Positions 2-29,896 are shown, counted from the stretch's first letter. The stretch is DNA of 32,000 bases from Candidatus Saccharimonadota bacterium (GCA_016700015.1 CP064995.1:90001-122000); one strand, 5' to 3'. Numbers and translations: made by a program. Notes: a model not told the origin generated them from the letters alone.

Positions 2-565
2 ACGAACACACTTTGGGATGGGGTTTTTGCGCAAAACAATTTGTCGTACATTCATCCAAAACTTGTGCTATTTCGCCAGGCTACGCAGTCGGGCTGCGGC
101 GTTGCCACAACACAGGTTGGACCGCATTTTTGCCCGAATGACAGCACGATCTACCTAGACGAAACATTCTTTGATGAACTTCATACTCGGTTTGGAGCTG
201 ACACTGGTGAAGTCGCTCAAGCTTACGTGATTGCTCACGAGGTTGGACATAATGTTCAGAATCAACTCGGAGCTTTTGATAATCGTGTCGCCCAGACTCA
301 GCAGGGTTCAGTGGCTATCGAACTACAAGCAGACTGTTATGCGGGGGTATGGGCGTATTCGATTGCAAAACAGGGTGTGTTTCAGGGTAATGAAATTGAG
401 CAGGCACTCGGCGCGGCTGCTGCTGTTGGTGATGATCATATCCAGCAAGTCGAAACGGGATATACCAACCCAGAAACTTGGACACATGGAAGTAGCGCTG
501 AGCGCGTAGCTGCTTTCACAAAAGGCTATACAACGGGCAAGCCTTCAACGTGTCAGGGCTTTTAG
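2..565 (+). CDS. Zn-dependent neutral metallopeptidase, YpfJ/PF04228-like (5' partial, runs off the window start)
   Basis: The frame is open from nt 2, and TNTLWDGVFAQNN precedes the listed Met. It has an HEVGH zinc motif (IAHEVGHNVQ) and GPHFCPNDSTIYLD and ELQADCYAG blocks typical of this family. Stop at 563-565. Confidence 0.8.
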   Translation, partial: TNTLWDGVFAQNNLSYIHPKLVLFRQATQSGCGVATTQVGPHFCPNDSTIYLDETFFDELHTRFGADTGEVAQAYVIAHEVGHNVQNQLGAFDNRVAQTQQGSVAIELQADCYAGVWAYSIAKQGVFQGNEIEQALGAAAAVGDDHIQQVETGYTNPETWTHGSSAERVAAFTKGYTTGKPSTCQGF

Positions 566-3021: not shown

Positions 3022-3100
3022 AAAAAAACGCTCAATACTCGATTTTACTTCAATTTCCATCAGTTGGATAGAGCAAGCTGCGCTATTTTTCGCTGACGGC

Positions 3101-3121
3101 TCCCCAACTGAGCTACCGGGG
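3101..3121 (-). pseudogene. orphan copy of the 5' 19-21 nt of tRNA-Arg(TCT) (acceptor plus D-arm start)
   Basis: CCAACTGAGCTACCGGGGC at 3103-3121 is identical to 3003-3021. An inverted 15-nt D-arm copy CAGTTGGATAGAGCA lies at 3061-3075. No complete cloverleaf can be folded. Confidence 0.6.
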
Positions 3122-3141
3122 CATACCATCAGTATAACTGA

Positions 3142-15252: not shown

Positions 15253-15447
15253 ATAGCTATATTGTACGCTATATAGGACAATAAATTGCAGGTATGATAG
15301 GCAGGATATCGCTCATTTCACTCGCTCTTCCGCTCAGTCGCAAAAGAAAAGAACTTTTTTTGGCTTCCTTCGCTGCACCGAACTTACGACTACGATATTT
15401 TCCTACGGAAAATCTCTAGTCGTAGAACCGGACCCTGCGGAACGTAA

Positions 15448-15485
15448 CCAATTCAAAAACCCCTCTTGAGGGGCTCATGAATTGG
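15448..15485 (-). terminator. nested hairpin overlapping the CCA end of tRNA-Arg(TCG)
   Basis: Outer stem CCAATTCA/TGAATTGG (8 bp) and inner stem CCCCTC/GAGGGG. The right outer arm covers the complement of the tRNA CCA. Confidence 0.5.
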
Positions 15486-16741: not shown

Positions 16742-17617
16742 CTAGATACACGAATAATCATAGTCAAGATTGTTGGCAACAAATTGGACAAGTTCGATCT
16801 TTCCGGTAGTGCCAGCTAATGGTTGGTAGTCAGGGCTGTTATTGACACAAACCTTGTAGGCATTGTCAATAGTAAAGCCAGTTCCTATGGCATACCAGGT
16901 GGGAACGTTTTTGAGTGGACTGGTAACTGAAATATTTCCGGTTCCGACGATAGTTTTCCACTGGGGGTTGGTAGAATATATGCCAACCCGTGGGATGGCT
17001 GCACGCTGCGTGAAGTAGCTGGCATAGCCTTCAAGTGTTGCCACATTCTTCTTGTAACCGTCTTTTTCACGGCCGCTATGCCATGTATTGAGCGTTTCAA
17101 CATCCAGCCACCACATGTAGCCACTCGCGAGCGGACTTAGTCCGTCAATTGTTGTCGCAGTTTGCGTGAAATAACCGACCACCTCCTGAGCACGCTCCCA
17201 TCCGTACTGGCGAGCACACGCGATACTGTTGTTACCGGTACAGCCAAACCCAGTGTTATAGCCGCTTGGGTCTATGCTGTCTTTGGGCCAATTGGCAACA
17301 AGCTTGGTATTCTTATAGTAATTTCCGGGGCTGGCAGTATTCACGTACAGCTGTACCTTAGGCTGGCTAGCAACGACACCACTAGATTGCGCAGCCCATA
17401 CGAGCTGATCCTTTAAACACAGATTTATATTGCTTGCCTTGCCGCCATTGACATTCACAATACCAAATGCCGGAGCCGATGGCAGTGTACTACCACACTG
17501 AGGATAGCCGACATCAATACCGAGAGTGTTTTGATCAAGTGCGTGGGCAGTATTACCTGCTAACGTGAGGGCTACCCATACTATGGTTCCACCCATAATT
17601 TTTTTCATACTAATCAT
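16742..17617 (-). CDS. secreted glycoside-hydrolase-like protein (GH25/DUF1906-type TIM barrel, putative muramidase)
   Basis: Signal peptide (MKKIMGGTIVWVALTLAGNTAHA). The GIDVGYPQCG start and the WWLDVE (D-x-E) block recall GH25 lysozymes. The functional call is tentative. The start could be 17617 or 17608. Confidence 0.6.
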   Translation of the reverse strand: MISMKKIMGGTIVWVALTLAGNTAHALDQNTLGIDVGYPQCGSTLPSAPAFGIVNVNGGKASNINLCLKDQLVWAAQSSGVVASQPKVQLYVNTASPGNYYKNTKLVANWPKDSIDPSGYNTGFGCTGNNSIACARQYGWERAQEVVGYFTQTATTIDGLSPLASGYMWWLDVETLNTWHSGREKDGYKKNVATLEGYASYFTQRAAIPRVGIYSTNPQWKTIVGTGNISVTSPLKNVPTWYAIGTGFTIDNAYKVCVNNSPDYQPLAGTTGKIELVQFVANNLDYDYSCI

Positions 17618-17696
17618 AAGTTTCTATTGTATCAGATTTGACTCATCTTTACATGCTGGCCCCTGTTTGCTACAATGTACCGGTACTTTATAGGTA

Positions 17697-17723
17697 TGGG
17701 CCAATAGCTAGAGCTGGTTAGAG
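17697..17723 (+). pseudogene. partial tRNA-Lys-like 5' fragment (acceptor plus D arm), continued at 17811-17820 after the inserted RNA element
   Basis: GGGCCAATAGCTAGAGCTGGTTAGAG compared with the intact GGGCCAGTAGCTCAGCTGGTTAGAG. After the element, CCTGCCTCTT matches the anticodon stem and loop 5' side of tRNA-Lys(CTT). No 3' half is present. Confidence 0.7.
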
Positions 17724-17810
17724 TGAGAACTGCCAGTTGGCAGTTCGCAAGGCGATGTCACAAATGAACTATGTTCATTTGCCTGACTCGCGGGGTCGCG
17801 CTGGTGTGAC
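17724..17810 (+). ncRNA. unclassified ~87-nt structured RNA element, copy L (three-hairpin fold)
   Basis: TGAGA-P1(ACTGCC/GGCAGT)-TCGCAAG-P2(GCGA.GTCA.CAAATGAAC-TAT-GTTCATTTG.TGAC.TCGC)-GGGG-P3(TCGC/GTGA). It is homologous to the copies at 23806, 29392 and 29699, with compensatory substitutions. Confidence 0.7.
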
Positions 17811-17873
17811 CCTGCCTCTTCCGAGCTTTGCTCGGCTGCGTGCACGCGTACCTTCCGGTATACTACAACTCAT

Positions 17874-17950
17874 GGGCCAGTAGCTCAGCTGGTTAGAGCA
17901 CCTGCCTCTTAAGCAGGGTGTCGAGAGTTCAAGTCTCTCCTGGCCCTCCA
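17874..17950 (+). tRNA. tRNA-Lys (anticodon CTT), CCA encoded
   Basis: Acceptor GGGCCAG/CTGGCCC, anticodon stem-loop CCTGC-CTCTTAA-GCAGG, T arm GAGAG-TTCAAGT-CTCTC, then T73 and CCA. Confidence 0.9.
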
Positions 17951-17993
17951 AGTAAAAATAGTCTCGTTGCAAAATGAGGCTATTTTTACTTGG
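17948..17993 (+). terminator. 18-bp hairpin starting at the CCA of tRNA-Lys
   Basis: CCAAGTAAAAATAGTCTC-(10-nt loop)-GAGGCTATTTTTACTTGG, with one G-U pair. No U-tract. Confidence 0.55.
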
Positions 17994-18006
17994 CCAAGGT
18001 TAGAGA

Positions 18007-18130
18007 TGAGACTTGTACTCTCGACTTTTTGCGAAGCAAAAATAGTCGAGAGGTCGCAAAGCGCAGCGAAATTCTGGAAAAGCTTGCTTTTGGCAGAATG
18101 AGCAAGCGGAGGAGCGAAGCGATAGTCTCT
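18007..18130 (+). repeat. divergent, enlarged relative of the structured RNA element, preceded by a GGCCAAGGTTAGAG tRNA-Lys-like remnant
   Basis: TGAGA, then a long P1 (CTCTCGACT...AGTCGAGAG), then GTCGCAAAG (compare TCGCAAG), then an ATTCTG..CAGAAT hairpin, then GCGGAGG. The 5' GAGACT can pair with the 3' AGTCTC. The match to the family is partial. Confidence 0.4.
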
Positions 18131-18148
18131 CTTAGCCCTTCCCACAAT

Positions 18149-18178
18149 AAAATGCCGACTTGCGACAGTCGGCATTTT
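18149..18178. terminator. bidirectional intrinsic terminator
   Basis: AAAATGCCGACT-TGCGAC-AGTCGGCATTTT. A GC-rich core stem is flanked by A- and T-tracts, and it lies between + strand RNAs and the minus-strand operon ending at 18197. Confidence 0.75.
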
Positions 18179-18196
18179 GCACAATGCGTATTGAAC

Positions 18197-18484
18197 CTAC
18201 ATACTATTCAATTCTTGCTCGAGTGCGGTGAGGTCAGCATCACTGAGGCTATCGACACTGGCGGTATCGAGGGCACTGAGCGCGGCATCAAGGTCTTTTG
18301 CTGTTTTTACGTCAGCAACGGTCGAGTTCTCGGCGGCAATAGATTTTCCGGCGCTCGGGTTGTTAACCGCCACTTCGGCCTTCGAGGTGATGAGATACGT
18401 GTACCCCAGCGCTCCGACGAGCACCACGAATACAACAACCACTAGTCCAAATATAGCTGCATGTCCTTGGTTATAATTCTTCAT
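18197..18484 (-). CDS. small membrane-anchored hypothetical protein
   Basis: N-terminal TM helix (AAIFGLVVVVFVVLVGALGYTYLI). The start overlaps the stop of the upstream gene (TAATG). Confidence 0.6.
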   Translation of the reverse strand: MKNYNQGHAAIFGLVVVVFVVLVGALGYTYLITSKAEVAVNNPSAGKSIAAENSTVADVKTAKDLDAALSALDTASVDSLSDADLTALEQELNSM

Positions 18485-23694: not shown

Positions 23695-23805
23695 TATGGG
23701 TTCTGAAACTGACGCTTCAGATAATCATCGGCACTTGCGCGCCATCCCTCCCTCTTTAGGGGGAGGAAGATTGCATTCGAATTCACTTCGAATCAAGCTG
23801 GAGGG

Positions 23806-23891
23806 TGAGGGCTGCCCGTCGGCAGGCCGCAAGGAAGTCTGCCGGATAAGCTATGCTTATCACGAGCAGCTTCGGGGCCGCGGGACGTGGC
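23806..23891 (+). ncRNA. unclassified ~86-nt structured RNA element, copy E5
   Basis: TGAGG-P1(CTGCC/GGCAG)-CCGCAAG-P2(GAAG.CTGC.GATAAGC-TAT-GCTTATC.GCAG.CTTC)-GGGG-P3(CCGCG-GGA-CGTGG). The flanks GGAGGG/CCCTCC can form a closing stem. It lies between convergent genes. Confidence 0.7.
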
Positions 23892-23925
23892 GTGGTCCCT
23901 CCTATAAAGGAGCGGTCAGTCTCGA

Positions 23926-25521
23926 TTAGTTTTGCGTGAGCTTGCGGCTTGCTATGTAATAGCTTACTGCAGCTGCTAGTGAGCTAAGTCCAAGGATGTT
24001 CATAACACCATCTACAATACCGGTGTGCGGAAGCTCATTCGGAGTAGTTGTAGTGGTCTTACAGTCAGGACTATTTTTTGGCAGAGATTCTTTACCAGGA
24101 ACCGTACAGTATTCGACTGGTTTGTCACACTTGCTCTTGTCGAGCGTGTAGTGGACATTGTCAATCTTTGACTTCTCAACTGTCTCGATTTTCTTTGTAT
24201 CAAGGTTACAAGCCTCTACCATTTCTGGCTTTGCTGCACACTTTGACAAATCTTTCGAGTACTTGGTGCTGTCAAATGTTGTTTCATCGATACGAACAAT
24301 CTTTTTGTCGCTCAGGCGGCAAACGTCGATCATAACTACTGGTGGATGGCAGTTAGCGGTATCTTTCGAGTACTTGCTAGTGTCAAAATCTTTTTCGTCA
24401 ATACGAACTATTTTCCAGTCGCTGAGTCGACAAACGTCGATGAGCTTTGGCTCAACACAGGTTTTGGTCGCTACTACATTGGCAGTATCAGACTTGTTAC
24501 CAGAGTTGGTCGTTGCAGTCGCAGTGTTGACAAGGGTGTTTTCACCACATTTGTCGAGCTGGTCGTTGGCTTTTACCTTGGCGGCAAATTTGATGTACAC
24601 GTCACCCTGTGGCAGGTAGCTGCCCATGGTCATACCACCAACAGTTACGCCGTCGGCAACCTTGCGGGTGCCAAGTGAATCGTGGACGTAGGTAGTGCCA
24701 GGAACGTATTCCATGTCGGCAGGGAGTACGTCTTTGATGGTGACATTGGTTTGGTTGGTACCACCAGTATTTTTGAAGTACAGTTGGTACTCAACAGTGT
24801 CGCCAGGGTTAGCAGCGACACTTTCGGTGAATGCACCGGTGCTGCCTTTGCGAACTGTTTTGACAAGGTTGAAGTCAGTTGTGGTGGCTTTGACCTTGAG
24901 GTAGACGACACCACTGTACTGGAAACAACCAGGGATGTTGCCATCCATTGCGTTGTAGCCAAGCTTTGCACCGCCGCTGACAATACTATCAGCTACGGGC
25001 GTGCCACTGGTGAATACTGCATTTTTGTAGAATGCAGAACCGGCGACGTAGCTTAGGTTAAATTTGGTACCGTTGGCACCATGGAATACGGCCTGGTCCC
25101 ACACGCTGGTAGGGTTGGCGTTGCTTGCATTTACATAGCCGTCGATCTGAATACGATCAGCGGTTTGGGTTGGTACGTTTAGCTTTGCTACCACGTCCCG
25201 AGCCACAAGGTTCAGGTTGCTAGCAGCATTGTTGTGTACATAAATGCGCACACTGTATTCTTTTCCGTTTTCTACGGTTACGTCGTCGGTATATTTGCCG
25301 TCGGCTCCCTGGATCATAACGAAGTTTCGTTCGTCACCATAGTTGGTAGCATCGGTAATACTGTTGAATGTTATGTATGGCGCAGGATTGGCCATGGTAA
25401 ATGTTGGGCGACTAGGTCCCCATGCGAGCAAGCCCGCGGGTACAGCGACTACAGCGAATGCCAGGGCGGCAACGGCTGCAGCGCGTGTGTTGACCTTGCG
25501 CACTAGTTGTGCAAATGTCAT
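23926..25521 (-). CDS. sortase-anchored surface protein (LPHTG sorting signal) with a DUF11-like repeat domain and Cys-containing tandem repeats
   Basis: Signal/TM at the N-terminus. PGDTVEYQLYFKNTGGTNQTNVTIKDVLPADMEYVPGT is DUF11-like. The C-terminus is ELPHTG, then a hydrophobic stretch, then SRKLTQN. Confidence 0.85.
   Translation of the reverse strand: MTFAQLVRKVNTRAAAVAALAFAVVAVPAGLLAWGPSRPTFTMANPAPYITFNSITDATNYGDERNFVMIQGADGKYTDDVTVENGKEYSVRIYVHNNAASNLNLVARDVVAKLNVPTQTADRIQIDGYVNASNANPTSVWDQAVFHGANGTKFNLSYVAGSAFYKNAVFTSGTPVADSIVSGGAKLGYNAMDGNIPGCFQYSGVVYLKVKATTTDFNLVKTVRKGSTGAFTESVAANPGDTVEYQLYFKNTGGTNQTNVTIKDVLPADMEYVPGTTYVHDSLGTRKVADGVTVGGMTMGSYLPQGDVYIKFAAKVKANDQLDKCGENTLVNTATATTNSGNKSDTANVVATKTCVEPKLIDVCRLSDWKIVRIDEKDFDTSKYSKDTANCHPPVVMIDVCRLSDKKIVRIDETTFDSTKYSKDLSKCAAKPEMVEACNLDTKKIETVEKSKIDNVHYTLDKSKCDKPVEYCTVPGKESLPKNSPDCKTTTTTPNELPHTGIVDGVMNILGLSSLAAAVSYYIASRKLTQN
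24112..24444 (-). repeat. three tandem 111-nt (37-aa) repeats inside the surface-protein gene
   Basis: The units are LIDVCRLSDWKIVRIDEKDFDTSKYSKDTANC, MIDVCRLSDKKIVRIDETTFDSTKYSKDLSKC and MVEACNLDTKKIETVEKSKIDNVHYTLDKSKC. They start at 24444, 24333 and 24222. Confidence 0.8.
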
Positions 25522-29287: not shown

Positions 29288-29325
29288 GGGGTGGAGTGTG
29301 ACGTAAGTTACACTCCACCCCTTTT
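29288..29325 (+). terminator. intrinsic terminator at the right edge of the island
   Basis: GGGGTGGAGTGT-(10-nt loop)-ACACTCCACCCC, followed by TTTT. Confidence 0.8.
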
Positions 29326-29350
29326 CAAATGCCAACAATATTGGTATAAT
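29322..29350 (+). promoter_or_regulatory. promoter reading into the tRNA-Glu fragment and RNA element (TTTTCA-17 nt-TATAAT with TG extension)
   Basis: Consensus TATAAT at 29345-29350 with TG at 29342-29343. The fragment starts 25 nt downstream of the -10. Confidence 0.5.
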
Positions 29351-29374: not shown

Positions 29375-29391
29375 GGTCCCATCGTCTAACG
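29375..29391 (+). pseudogene. partial tRNA-Glu 5' fragment, continued at 29479-29496 after the inserted RNA element
   Basis: GGTCCCATCGTCTAACG is identical to the first 17 nt of the intact tRNA-Glu. After the element, TAGGATACCAGGCTGTCC corresponds to TAGGACACCAGGTTTTCA in the intact gene. No anticodon-stem closure or 3' half is present. Confidence 0.75.
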
Positions 29392-29478
29392 TGAGAGCCG
29401 CCAGTGGCGGGTCGCAAGGGAGTCCACTCTTGAAAGCTATGCTTTCAAAGATGTGGCGACGGGGTCGCGGAACGTGAC
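29392..29478 (+). ncRNA. unclassified ~87-nt structured RNA element, copy G1 (in the D-loop of the tRNA-Glu fragment)
   Basis: TGAGA-P1(CCGCC/GGCGG)-TCGCAAG-P2(GGAG.CCAC.TCTTGAAAGC-TAT-GCTTTCAAAGA.GTGG.CGAC)-GGGG-P3(TCGCG-GAA-CGTGA). Confidence 0.7.
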
Positions 29479-29547
29479 TAGGATACCAGGCTGTCCGTCG
29501 CTCTTGCTCTACAAATACACGCACCTTTCGTTTACACTAATCTATAT

Positions 29548-29622
29548 GGTCCCATCGTCTAACGGTTAGGACACCAGGTTTTCATCCTGGCAATCCGGGT
29601 TCGATTCCCGGTGGGATCACCA
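29548..29622 (+). tRNA. tRNA-Glu (anticodon TTC), CCA encoded
   Basis: Acceptor GGTCCCA/TGGGATC, anticodon stem-loop CCAGG-TTTTCAT-CCTGG, T arm CCGGG-TTCGATT-CCCGG, then ACCA. Confidence 0.9.
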
Positions 29623-29663
29623 CGTAAGCGCCCCTGTTTTTACAGGGGTGTTTGCGTGGTGAT
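29616..29663 (+). terminator. two-tier hairpin incorporating the acceptor 3' strand and CCA of tRNA-Glu
   Basis: Outer stem ATCACCACG/CGTGGTGAT (9 bp) and inner stem CCCCTGT/ACAGGGG (7 bp) around a TTTT loop. Confidence 0.55.
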
Positions 29664-29689
29664 ACTTTCTGGTAATTGCCCGGATTGCC

Positions 29690-29797
29690 CAATCCGGGTG
29701 AGAAGTGACGGGCGTCACTTCGCAAGGCGATGCCGCACGTGAGCTATGCTCACGAGACCGGCTCGCGGGGTCGCCAGAGGTGACCGATTCCCGGTGG
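29690..29797 (+). pseudogene. partial tRNA-Glu 3' fragment (variable region plus T arm) split in the T-loop by RNA element copy G2
   Basis: CAATCCGGG (29690-29698) and CGATTCCCGGTGG (29785-29797) together reproduce CAATCCGGGTTCGATTCCCGGTGG of the intact gene, minus the two T-loop Ts. Confidence 0.7.
29699..29784 (+). ncRNA. unclassified ~86-nt structured RNA element, copy G2
   Basis: TGAGA-P1(AGTGAC/GTCACT)-TCGCAAG-P2(GCGA.GCCG.CGTGAGC-TAT-GCTCACG.CGGC.TCGC)-GGGG-P3(TCGCC-AGA-GGTGA). Confidence 0.7.
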
Positions 29798-29896
29798 TTT
29801 ATAAAATCAGATTTTTCGCCTCTGTTAAGGATCAGATCTTTCGTTTTTGTGCATACGGTGGGAGTGGAGCACAGATGATTACTTAAAGTTATAAAT

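Follow-up and report, generated by a model that had tools for sequence, protein, structure and literature searches.

The tRNA-Lys(CTT) gene considered here lies in a window of 32,000 nucleotides (nt) from a Candidatus Saccharimonadota bacterium (GCA_016700015.1 CP064995.1:90001-122000), that is, from a member of the Saccharibacteria (TM7, candidate phyla radiation). It is flanked on both sides by non-functional partial copies of itself, hereafter decoys, each interrupted by a small insert. The upstream insert, named E1, belongs to a structured family with at least 116 copies in at least 93 Saccharibacteria loci, as detected by a covariance model, and the downstream one to a second, different structured insert family, named E2. 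The reading that we favour, with a probability of about one half, makes E1 a small insertion element, non-coding and specific for tRNA-shaped sequence, which would survive only in dispensable decoys and be co-transcribed with the tRNA.

The wider sampling relied on a scan for the E1 pattern, with one genome per species, which matched at least 120 loci. The sampled Saccharibacteria loci found in this way carry L-numbers below, and all locus and copy counts are counts among the matches listed. A pairing check on P1, one of the E1 hairpins, was passed by 99 matches in 93 loci (window included), nearly all of them from Saccharibacteria. The covariance model was built from 95 copies and used to search the window and the 93 loci.

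The decoys on either side of tRNA-Lys

The features of the locus are the following, with the basis of each in brackets.

17648-17676, +: promoter-like site, TTTACA-17-TACAAT with TG, upstream of the Lys decoy (sole consensus-like promoter within 17550-18250)
17698-17723, +: upstream decoy, sense copy of tRNA-Lys nt 1-25 (acceptor 5' strand and D arm), GGGCCAATAGCTAGAGCTGGTTAGAG (alignment)
17723-17810, +: E1 copy with three hairpins, P1, P2/P3 and P4, taking the place of tRNA nt 26-27 (covariance model)
17811-17820, +: decoy resuming after E1, CCTGCCTCTT, equal to tRNA-Lys nt 28-37 (alignment)
17821-17835, +: hairpin CCGAGC-TTT-GCTCGG closing the upstream unit, with no T-tract after it (sequence, folding)
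17874-17950, +: intact tRNA-Lys(CTT), CCA encoded (ARAGORN, Rfam)
17951-17991, +: terminator-type palindrome directly 3' of CCA, centre of the first inverted repeat (sequence, comparison)
17991-18025, +: antisense to the 3' portion of tRNA-Lys, diverged, covering TGG, acceptor and T arm (scan, orthologous L086 unit)
18045-18052, +: sense T-stem 5' piece of the downstream decoy, GTCGAGAG, tRNA nt 46-53 (alignment)
18053-18123, +: E2 insert, 71 nt, in the T-loop of the decoy (alignment to E2 inserts; no match to the E1 model)
18124-18139, +: sense 3' piece AGTCTCTCTTAGCCCT, degenerate copy of tRNA-Lys nt 59-74 (flank scan)

In the upstream unit, a self-similarity scan of the flanks places the look-alike of nt 1-25 at -176..-150 relative to the intact gene. 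A 5' look-alike running into a structured element had already been described in an earlier, sequence-only reading of this DNA, and it is borne out by the alignment of nt 1-25 and by the covariance model, which places E1 directly after them. The similarity to tRNA also stands up statistically: among 148 tRNAs the scan finds self-similar sequence upstream of 58 and downstream of 79, versus 8 matches in 296 shuffled flanks. This E1 copy is 88 nt long, scores 77 bits (E about 2e-17) and carries the conserved strings GUGAG, CGCAAGG and CGGGGUCGC...GUGAC. The resumption of tRNA-like sequence beyond it, followed by the closing hairpin, had been proposed as well and is confirmed by the match of CCTGCCTCTT to nt 28-37.

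On the downstream side, the string GGCCAAGGTTAGAG (17992-18005) had been taken for a shorter remnant running into a divergent, larger version of the same element. The string is indeed present, but it lies within the antisense copy and is no remnant with a second element copy. The E1 model has no match at 17990-18140, at E up to 10 with filters off. Nor do two Lys remnants share one element at one position after GGTTAGAG, as had been claimed, the downstream insert being E2, in the T-loop of a 3' fragment. The string GGCCAAGG most likely represents the acceptor 3' strand in antisense, a relation that is clear in the orthologous unit of L086. The best-matching antisense stretch (18008-18025, GAGACTTGTACTCTCGAC) is the antisense of tRNA-Lys nt 47-64, in the T arm, and a small hairpin lies between the antisense copy and the sense T-stem piece. 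L086, whose tRNA-Lys is identical, has a similar antisense segment (TGGGCCAAGTGAGATTGAATTCTCGAC), a canonical E1 in the T-loop, and then nt 57-77 and the terminator, both perfectly copied. The downstream scaffold in the window matches L086 in its antisense segment, yet the insert is E2 rather than E1. The open reading frames (ORFs) 17909-18184 (-) and 17990-18445 (+), which had been considered artefacts, have no Pfam match and overlap the tRNA and the RNA features, which fits that view.

E2 consists of a core (GCAGCGAAAT..CTGG), a hairpin with a GYTTRC loop and then ATGAGCAAGCGGAGGAGC. Its place in downstream decoys is the T-loop, where it follows TTCG and separates nt 57 from nt 58. The Lys copy aligns well to inserts at the T-loop position in decoys of tRNA-Ser(GCT) (L050) and tRNA-Leu(CAG) (L085), and both E2 hairpins show compensatory changes in this alignment. 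It aligns also to the insert in another decoy of the window:

15300-15450, -: downstream decoy of tRNA-Arg(TCG), at these approximate limits, with antisense copy, sense T-stem piece, E2-type insert after TTCG, then ATCCTGCC (alignment)

Besides these two places in the window, E2 occurs in L050, L085, L096, L078, L023 and L097. A set of eight sequences is too heterogeneous to yield a consensus structure, good alignment being obtained only in the close subset. In L019 and L092, E2 is reversed in orientation.

E1 as a structured family and its position relative to tRNA genes

E1 copies are 85-114 nt long and share one architecture, in which the hairpins P1, a long P2/P3, and P4 with its triloop are joined by invariant GUGAG, CGCAAGG and CGGGGYCGC...GYGRC. 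Across the 95 copies, standard pairs occupy 95.2% of cells, versus 72% after shuffling and 29-45% when the partners are slid, and 551 cells are compensatory. The G.U pair in P4 is kept in 91 of the 95, which makes the structure a property of this strand, in the form of RNA or, possibly, of single-stranded DNA. That the element is a real structured family, as previously suggested, is thus supported by strong covariation and by the four copies that the model finds in the window, all on the + strand and scoring 77-88 bits each (17723-17810, 23805-23891, 29391-29478 and 29698-29784); nothing else in the window exceeds 12 bits.

Known families do not account for it. At the gathering thresholds of Rfam 15 the window contains seven tRNAs, the gene number supported by ARAGORN and Rfam together, and nothing besides; a permissive search of 17500-18300 gave chance-level matches only, apart from tRNA-Lys, and no Rfam family matches E1. 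T-box-like RNAs, riboswitches, known small ribozymes, retrons, guide-RNA scaffolds (TnpB/IscB/IS110) and Y-RNA were rejected for want of an Rfam match or a defining feature. A viral origin was rejected too: 13 pattern matches in viral contigs, GC-rich, all fail the P1 pairing test and were treated as chance. The literature open to full-text search, with subscription literature outside its reach, holds no description of E1 or of its tRNA-decoy layout.

Nearly every E1 copy lies within a partial copy of the adjoining intact tRNA and in the same orientation. A same-strand tRNA is found within 135 nt of 82 of the 116 copies, 50 of them downstream and 32 upstream of it; the remaining ones are mostly second tandem units, copies at contig edges, or copies in tRNA-like fragments with no intact tRNA nearby. 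The orientation follows the tRNA strand by 114 to 2 among the matches listed. The two opposite-strand copies (L024 4118-4205, L059 189-275) occupy the variable-loop position of a downstream tRNA-Phe(GAA) decoy and are apparently orthologous. Seen from the tRNA side, 84 of the 148 tRNA genes of the sampled loci have an E1 copy within 135 nt, a share that overstates the genome-wide fraction because the loci were selected for containing E1.

The sequence-only reading had recognized tRNA-like remnants with an insert around tRNA-Lys and missed the general layout, in which an intact tRNA is followed by an inverted partial copy and then by a direct partial copy with the insert. Two mirrored arrangements cover the copies, and they are seen beside tRNA genes of more than 90 related genomes. 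Downstream units run from the intact tRNA through the terminator palindrome, an antisense segment going from nt 77 to about nt 44, the sense nt 44-54 and E1 in the T-loop, to nt 57-77 with CCA, and often end with an exact repeat of the terminator, stopping at its T-tract. At many tRNAs their pieces keep fixed offsets (+43..75 for the antisense, +66..85 for sense nt 44-55 and +160..197 for sense nt 57-77). Upstream units comprise a promoter, sense nt 1..N (N being 15-25, 37, 46, 51-55, or 64 in long tRNAs), E1, about 10 more tRNA nt, and a hairpin or antisense stretch, and 36-75 nt separate this from the intact tRNA. As in a tandem inversion duplication, the second of three copies is inverted, and the mirror image occurs upstream of tRNAs. 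Scaffolds without E1, and scaffolds with other small inserts, also exist. In L030, L077 and L067, upstream of tRNA-Lys and tRNA-Pro, further small inserts replace the D-loop region of the decoy after nt 18, and one of them opens like P1 of E1 and then diverges, which suggests a wider range of insert types. Whole downstream units (antisense, E1, 3' fragment, terminator) are tandemly repeated in L029 (4740-5010) and L118 (5917-6260), with a period of about 184 nt.

Elsewhere in the window, the same organization is observed around tRNA-Glu, and one E1 copy stands apart from any tRNA.

29322-29350: promoter-like site upstream of the tRNA-Glu decoy (promoter scan)
29375-29500, +: upstream tRNA-Glu decoy with nt 1-17, E1 (29391-29478) placed in the D-loop, and nt 20-31 after it (covariance model, alignment)
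29655-29800, +: downstream decoy of tRNA-Glu (29548-29622), antisense and sense T-stem pieces, E1 29698-29784 in the T-loop, then nt 55-67 (model, alignment)
23805-23891, +: E1 with no nearby tRNA, in a T-arm-like GGAGG...CCCTCC context (covariance model)

tRNA-Glu has accordingly E1 units on both sides, tRNA-Lys has E1 upstream and E2 downstream, and tRNA-Arg(TCG) has E2 downstream. In the intervals scanned around the Lys and Glu loci, the best sigma-70-like promoters (17648-17676 and 29322-29350) lie upstream of the decoys, and no promoter-like site was found immediately upstream of either tRNA, so that tRNA-Lys and tRNA-Glu may be transcribed through their decoys. The decoy units also fold much better than shuffled sequences (z = -5.5 and -6.6).

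The orphan locus (window 23700-23930) is conserved in four species, being found also in L111 (5880-6140), L093 (7700-7960, -) and L015 (3128-3390). Upstream of its E1 stands a covarying hairpin with an anticodon-like 7-nt loop, AUUYAYU, with UCA or UUA at the anticodon position. After in-silico excision in L093, ARAGORN calls a tRNA-Stop(tta), a putative suppressor tRNA with a weak cloverleaf, and the locus may be a stand-alone tRNA-like RNA carrying E1. Upstream of tRNA-Arg(TCT) (window 3040-3123, -), a unit without E1 combines an exact copy of nt 1-19, a 28-nt filler and the antisense of nt 27-12, which gives a hairpin. L118 has a similar E1-less unit upstream of its tRNA-Arg(TCT), and L071 an antisense piece upstream of the same gene. 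Proteins encoded in the window include MurB, FolD, a type IV pilin-like protein and proteins with a TM2 domain. A pair of direct repeats of 81 nt (79% identical, window 24250-24441) lies inside a DUF11-domain ORF (23926-25521, -) and is probably an internal protein repeat.

Insertion, constraint and competing explanations

Mapped on the adjacent intact tRNA, the junctions are well defined. E1 (TGAG...GTGAC) starts after a G, and about 2 nt (1-3) of the host sequence are replaced, namely TT at T-loop sites, C25-R26, or GT at sites in the D-loop, in the variable loop or at the T-stem edge. Site-specific insertion into tRNA-like sequence, one of the two origins offered earlier, agrees with these junctions and with the finding that all 116 copies lie in tRNA-like sequence or in another E1. 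E1 is indeed nested in E1 four times independently, at the same P4 point, CGG|GGT|CGC, a site that resembles the tRNA variable-loop/T-stem junction:

L025 7103-7263, L042 248-407, L106 1711-1885 and L117 158-316: nested E1-in-E1 (covariance model)

Neither a duplication nor an antisense piece surrounds the inner copy at these four loci.

Comparison of the tRNA-Lys(CTT) locus across relatives, which had been recommended as a check, reveals both empty and filled sites, with different filled positions. L021 has no unit; L058 has an upstream E1 after nt 54 and the window one after nt 25; five species (L009, L030, L031, L086, L096) have a downstream E1, where the window has E2. In L058 the ancestral promoter region remains with the decoy, which is therefore the original 5' end, with the intact gene behind it. 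E1 similarity is decoupled from location: the nearest relative of a copy sits in the same tRNA context in 3 of 53 cases among the matches listed, which equals chance (3%), and even copies with up to 95% identity are lodged in different tRNAs from one species to another. Multi-copy, nested, and variable in occupancy, E1 thus has the properties of a mobile element in the general sense. The other origin offered earlier, duplication of an already-interrupted gene, is contradicted by in-silico excision, which almost never restores a full tRNA, and by the variation of E1 position and presence between species.

How such an element could live in these genomes may be pictured as follows. E1 would enter tRNA-shaped sequence in the tRNA-sense orientation. 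Its main site would be the T-loop, besides the D-loop, the variable loop, the anticodon loop and the D-stem/26 hinge. It would also enter the T-arm-like CGGGGUCGC of other E1 copies, and each insertion would replace about two nucleotides behind a G. The genomes of Saccharibacteria measure about 1 Mb, and their tRNA genes are single-copy. An insertion in a single essential tRNA gene would be lethal, and E1 would therefore persist only in dispensable partial duplicates. These sense-antisense-sense duplicates resemble tandem inversion duplications and could have arisen by template switching at the tRNA hairpins and the terminator. Since scaffolds are found without E1 or with other inserts, the simplest order would be a partial inverted-tandem duplication first and the insertion later. 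Placed behind a tRNA promoter or in a tRNA trailer, E1 would then be transcribed with the tRNA as a compact multi-helix RNA.

Several observations weigh against E1 being such an insertion element. No transposase, reverse transcriptase or integrase is tied to it, and a search for E1 halves separated by an ORF gave no autonomous copy. Inverted repeats are absent from its ends (GTGAGA... and ...CGTGAC), and the junctions show no target-site duplication, whereas both would be expected of miniature inverted-repeat transposable elements (MITEs); no known transposition chemistry accordingly fits. The copies in the window share 61-75% identity, so that a recent burst has not taken place in this genome. 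Consisting of a G, two nucleotides and usually a C, the bare target is not specific enough to account for the strict restriction to tRNA-like sequence, and a structural or homology-based recognition has to be assumed. The order of events itself can only be inferred, because every downstream 3' fragment examined carries an insert. Finally, the upstream unit of tRNA-Gly(GCC) is common to 8 species and looks selected: its E1 stems are all kept through compensatory change, and its pseudo-anticodon hairpin CTTGCCAGGCCAAGG, made of the real loop and 5 nt more, does not vary.

This Gly unit also speaks for an explanation that we hold to have a real chance, with the odds against it, in which the decoy units are host-selected, cis-linked non-coding RNAs, acting as leaders or trailers of the pre-tRNA. 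The sense/antisense scaffold would form a stem and E1 or E2 a functional domain, which might bind a protein or ligand and tune the folding, processing or stability of the neighbouring tRNA; the insertion-like features would be due to history or gene conversion. Next to the invariant hairpin, the spacer of the Gly unit is saturated and cannot be aligned. The tRNA-like 5' part of the unit changes together with the genuine tRNA from species to species, and decoy 3' parts do likewise. The downstream antisense piece likewise keeps its complementarity to the sense T-stem piece across species (CCACGAC/GTCGTGG versus CACGCC/GGCCGTGG). The folding scores and the almost constant tRNA-sense orientation point the same way, as do the consensus promoters 5' of the decoys, by which, from the sequence, decoys would be made with every tRNA transcript. 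Such signs of constraint keep a host function alive as an explanation, and they could also reflect rapid turnover and gene conversion. Host selection accounts poorly, however, for an insert whose presence and position differ between species for the same tRNA, for the many tRNAs that have no unit at all, and for one scaffold holding different insert families. E1 copies nested in E1 have no obvious function, E1 similarity is independent of the host tRNA, and the outer part of the antisense copy is decaying.

Two further explanations start from known behaviours of tRNA genes. The decoys could be the remains of tRNA genes with a spliceable intron, miniature group II/III-like or processed by an endonuclease, and duplication or reverse transcription of the spliced tRNA would have supplied the intact, intron-less neighbours that replaced them. 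The E1 ends, GUGAG...AC, bring to mind the boundaries of group II introns, GUGYG...AY; the sites lie in loops or hinges, as with archaeal non-canonical introns; a few copies, such as L004 (Arg-CCT) and L100, are nearly full-length interrupted tRNAs; and the orphan locus at 23805 has its conserved anticodon-like hairpin. We nevertheless consider this improbable. Each of the 99 copies was removed with 864 boundary combinations and submitted to ARAGORN, and a junction-spanning tRNA was called for 17 of them, mostly just the intact downstream gene; nearly full-length interrupted decoys are few (L004, of Arg-CCT, L100 and L093). A spliceable intron in a needed tRNA was rejected on this ground, and an archaeal-type, endonuclease-spliced one because the complete host tRNA is lacking in most copies. 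Group I and group II self-splicing introns were rejected as well, with no such family in the Rfam searches and a length of 85-114 nt, the 88 nt of the Lys copy being far under known self-splicing sizes, for which about 200 nt or more are expected. Nested copies lie outside any tRNA. For a generic closing helix around E1, the cross-pairs counted between the flanks are indistinguishable from shuffled controls, because the T-stem itself pairs across the insert. Since E1 positions differ for one tRNA and empty loci exist, the copies are gains and not ancestral introns.

Within tRNA genes, the T-loop and anticodon-loop sublocations are known targets of integrases, whose action leaves 3' fragments in duplicate. 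By analogy, the partial copies might be attachment-site scars of integrase-driven elements targeting tRNA loops, with E1 and E2 as residual ends, and several loci do show direct repeats of nt 57-77 with the terminator around about 120 nt, the layout of a single crossover. The supposed islands are, however, about 180 nt long and gene-free. Promoter-bearing 5' fragments, which integrase scars do not produce, are as frequent as a mirror process predicts, and E1 has tRNA sequence on both sides, inside a loop rather than at an attachment boundary. With no integrase family match among the ten ORFs scanned around the Lys locus, this is the least probable of the explanations, and a very unlikely one.

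Beyond E1 as a tRNA-specific insertion element, a broader proposal can be put forward more tentatively, with the balance somewhat against it: E1, E2 and the smaller inserts would form a new class of tRNA-loop-specific, protein-less mobile RNA modules, possibly moving at the RNA level or through tRNA-folded single-stranded DNA, or else the decoys would be lineage-wide tRNA-linked regulatory RNAs.

Significance and comparison with known systems

Standard annotation misses the decoy units entirely, its output at these loci being the tRNA and spurious ORFs alone. A mobile E1 would represent a new way of life for a selfish element in a streamlined genome, combining specificity for the tRNA shape with residence in decoys, and would point to an insertion chemistry not yet known. 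If the decoy units are functional, they add a new layer of control of tRNA biogenesis in the candidate phyla radiation; and if the system proves to be lineage-wide, many tRNA genes of Saccharibacteria each have a structured leader or trailer RNA of their own, cognate to the tRNA and derived from its sequence. Either way, E1 as a structured RNA is well defined, an alignment and a covariance model are available for it, and it is directly testable.

Bacterial group I introns of tRNA genes, and the bulge-helix-bulge introns and split tRNAs of archaea, likewise place structured RNA inside tRNA at loop positions, and the tRNA introns of Thermoproteales share with E1 the use of many different positions. 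In contrast, E1 is hosted by truncated decoys, so that splicing is not needed, and the same tRNA stands intact beside it; at 88 nt, it has no group I or II signature in Rfam. As to the choice of site, tRNA genes are presented as a safe haven for mobile elements in gene-dense genomes, exemplified by the TRE elements of Dictyostelium and the Ty elements of yeast (PMC5006619). The likeness to E1 is a compact genome and mobile elements that gather within about 100-200 nt of tRNA genes and leave them intact (PMC5006619). TRE and Ty appear there as protein-coding retrotransposons that recognize machinery of RNA polymerase III (Pol III), whereas E1 is bacterial, non-coding, 88 nt long and located inside partial tRNA duplicates.

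MITEs, REP/BIME sequences, the palindromic elements of Rickettsia and nested, "twintron"-like insertions are, as E1, short, structured, protein-less and multi-copy, and MITE- and twintron-like elements also nest in themselves and vary in occupancy between related genomes. E1 differs from the MITE-like elements by its lack of terminal inverted repeats and of target-site duplication, with about 2 nt replaced instead, by its tRNA-shaped targets only, by an orientation tied to the tRNA strand, and by an RNA-level structure with a conserved G.U pair. For the scaffold, the closest precedent is found in Salmonella, where tandem inversion duplications formed by template switching at quasi-palindromes have been described. 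By analogy, the decoys may be likened to them in their sense-antisense-sense order and in their junctions at hairpins (terminator, T arm, anticodon arm). The Salmonella duplications extend over kilobases, whereas the decoys measure tens of nt, occur at many tRNA genes and across species, and carry an insert in the distal copy. Each of the known analogies thus shares one aspect with the E1 system and fails on its defining features.

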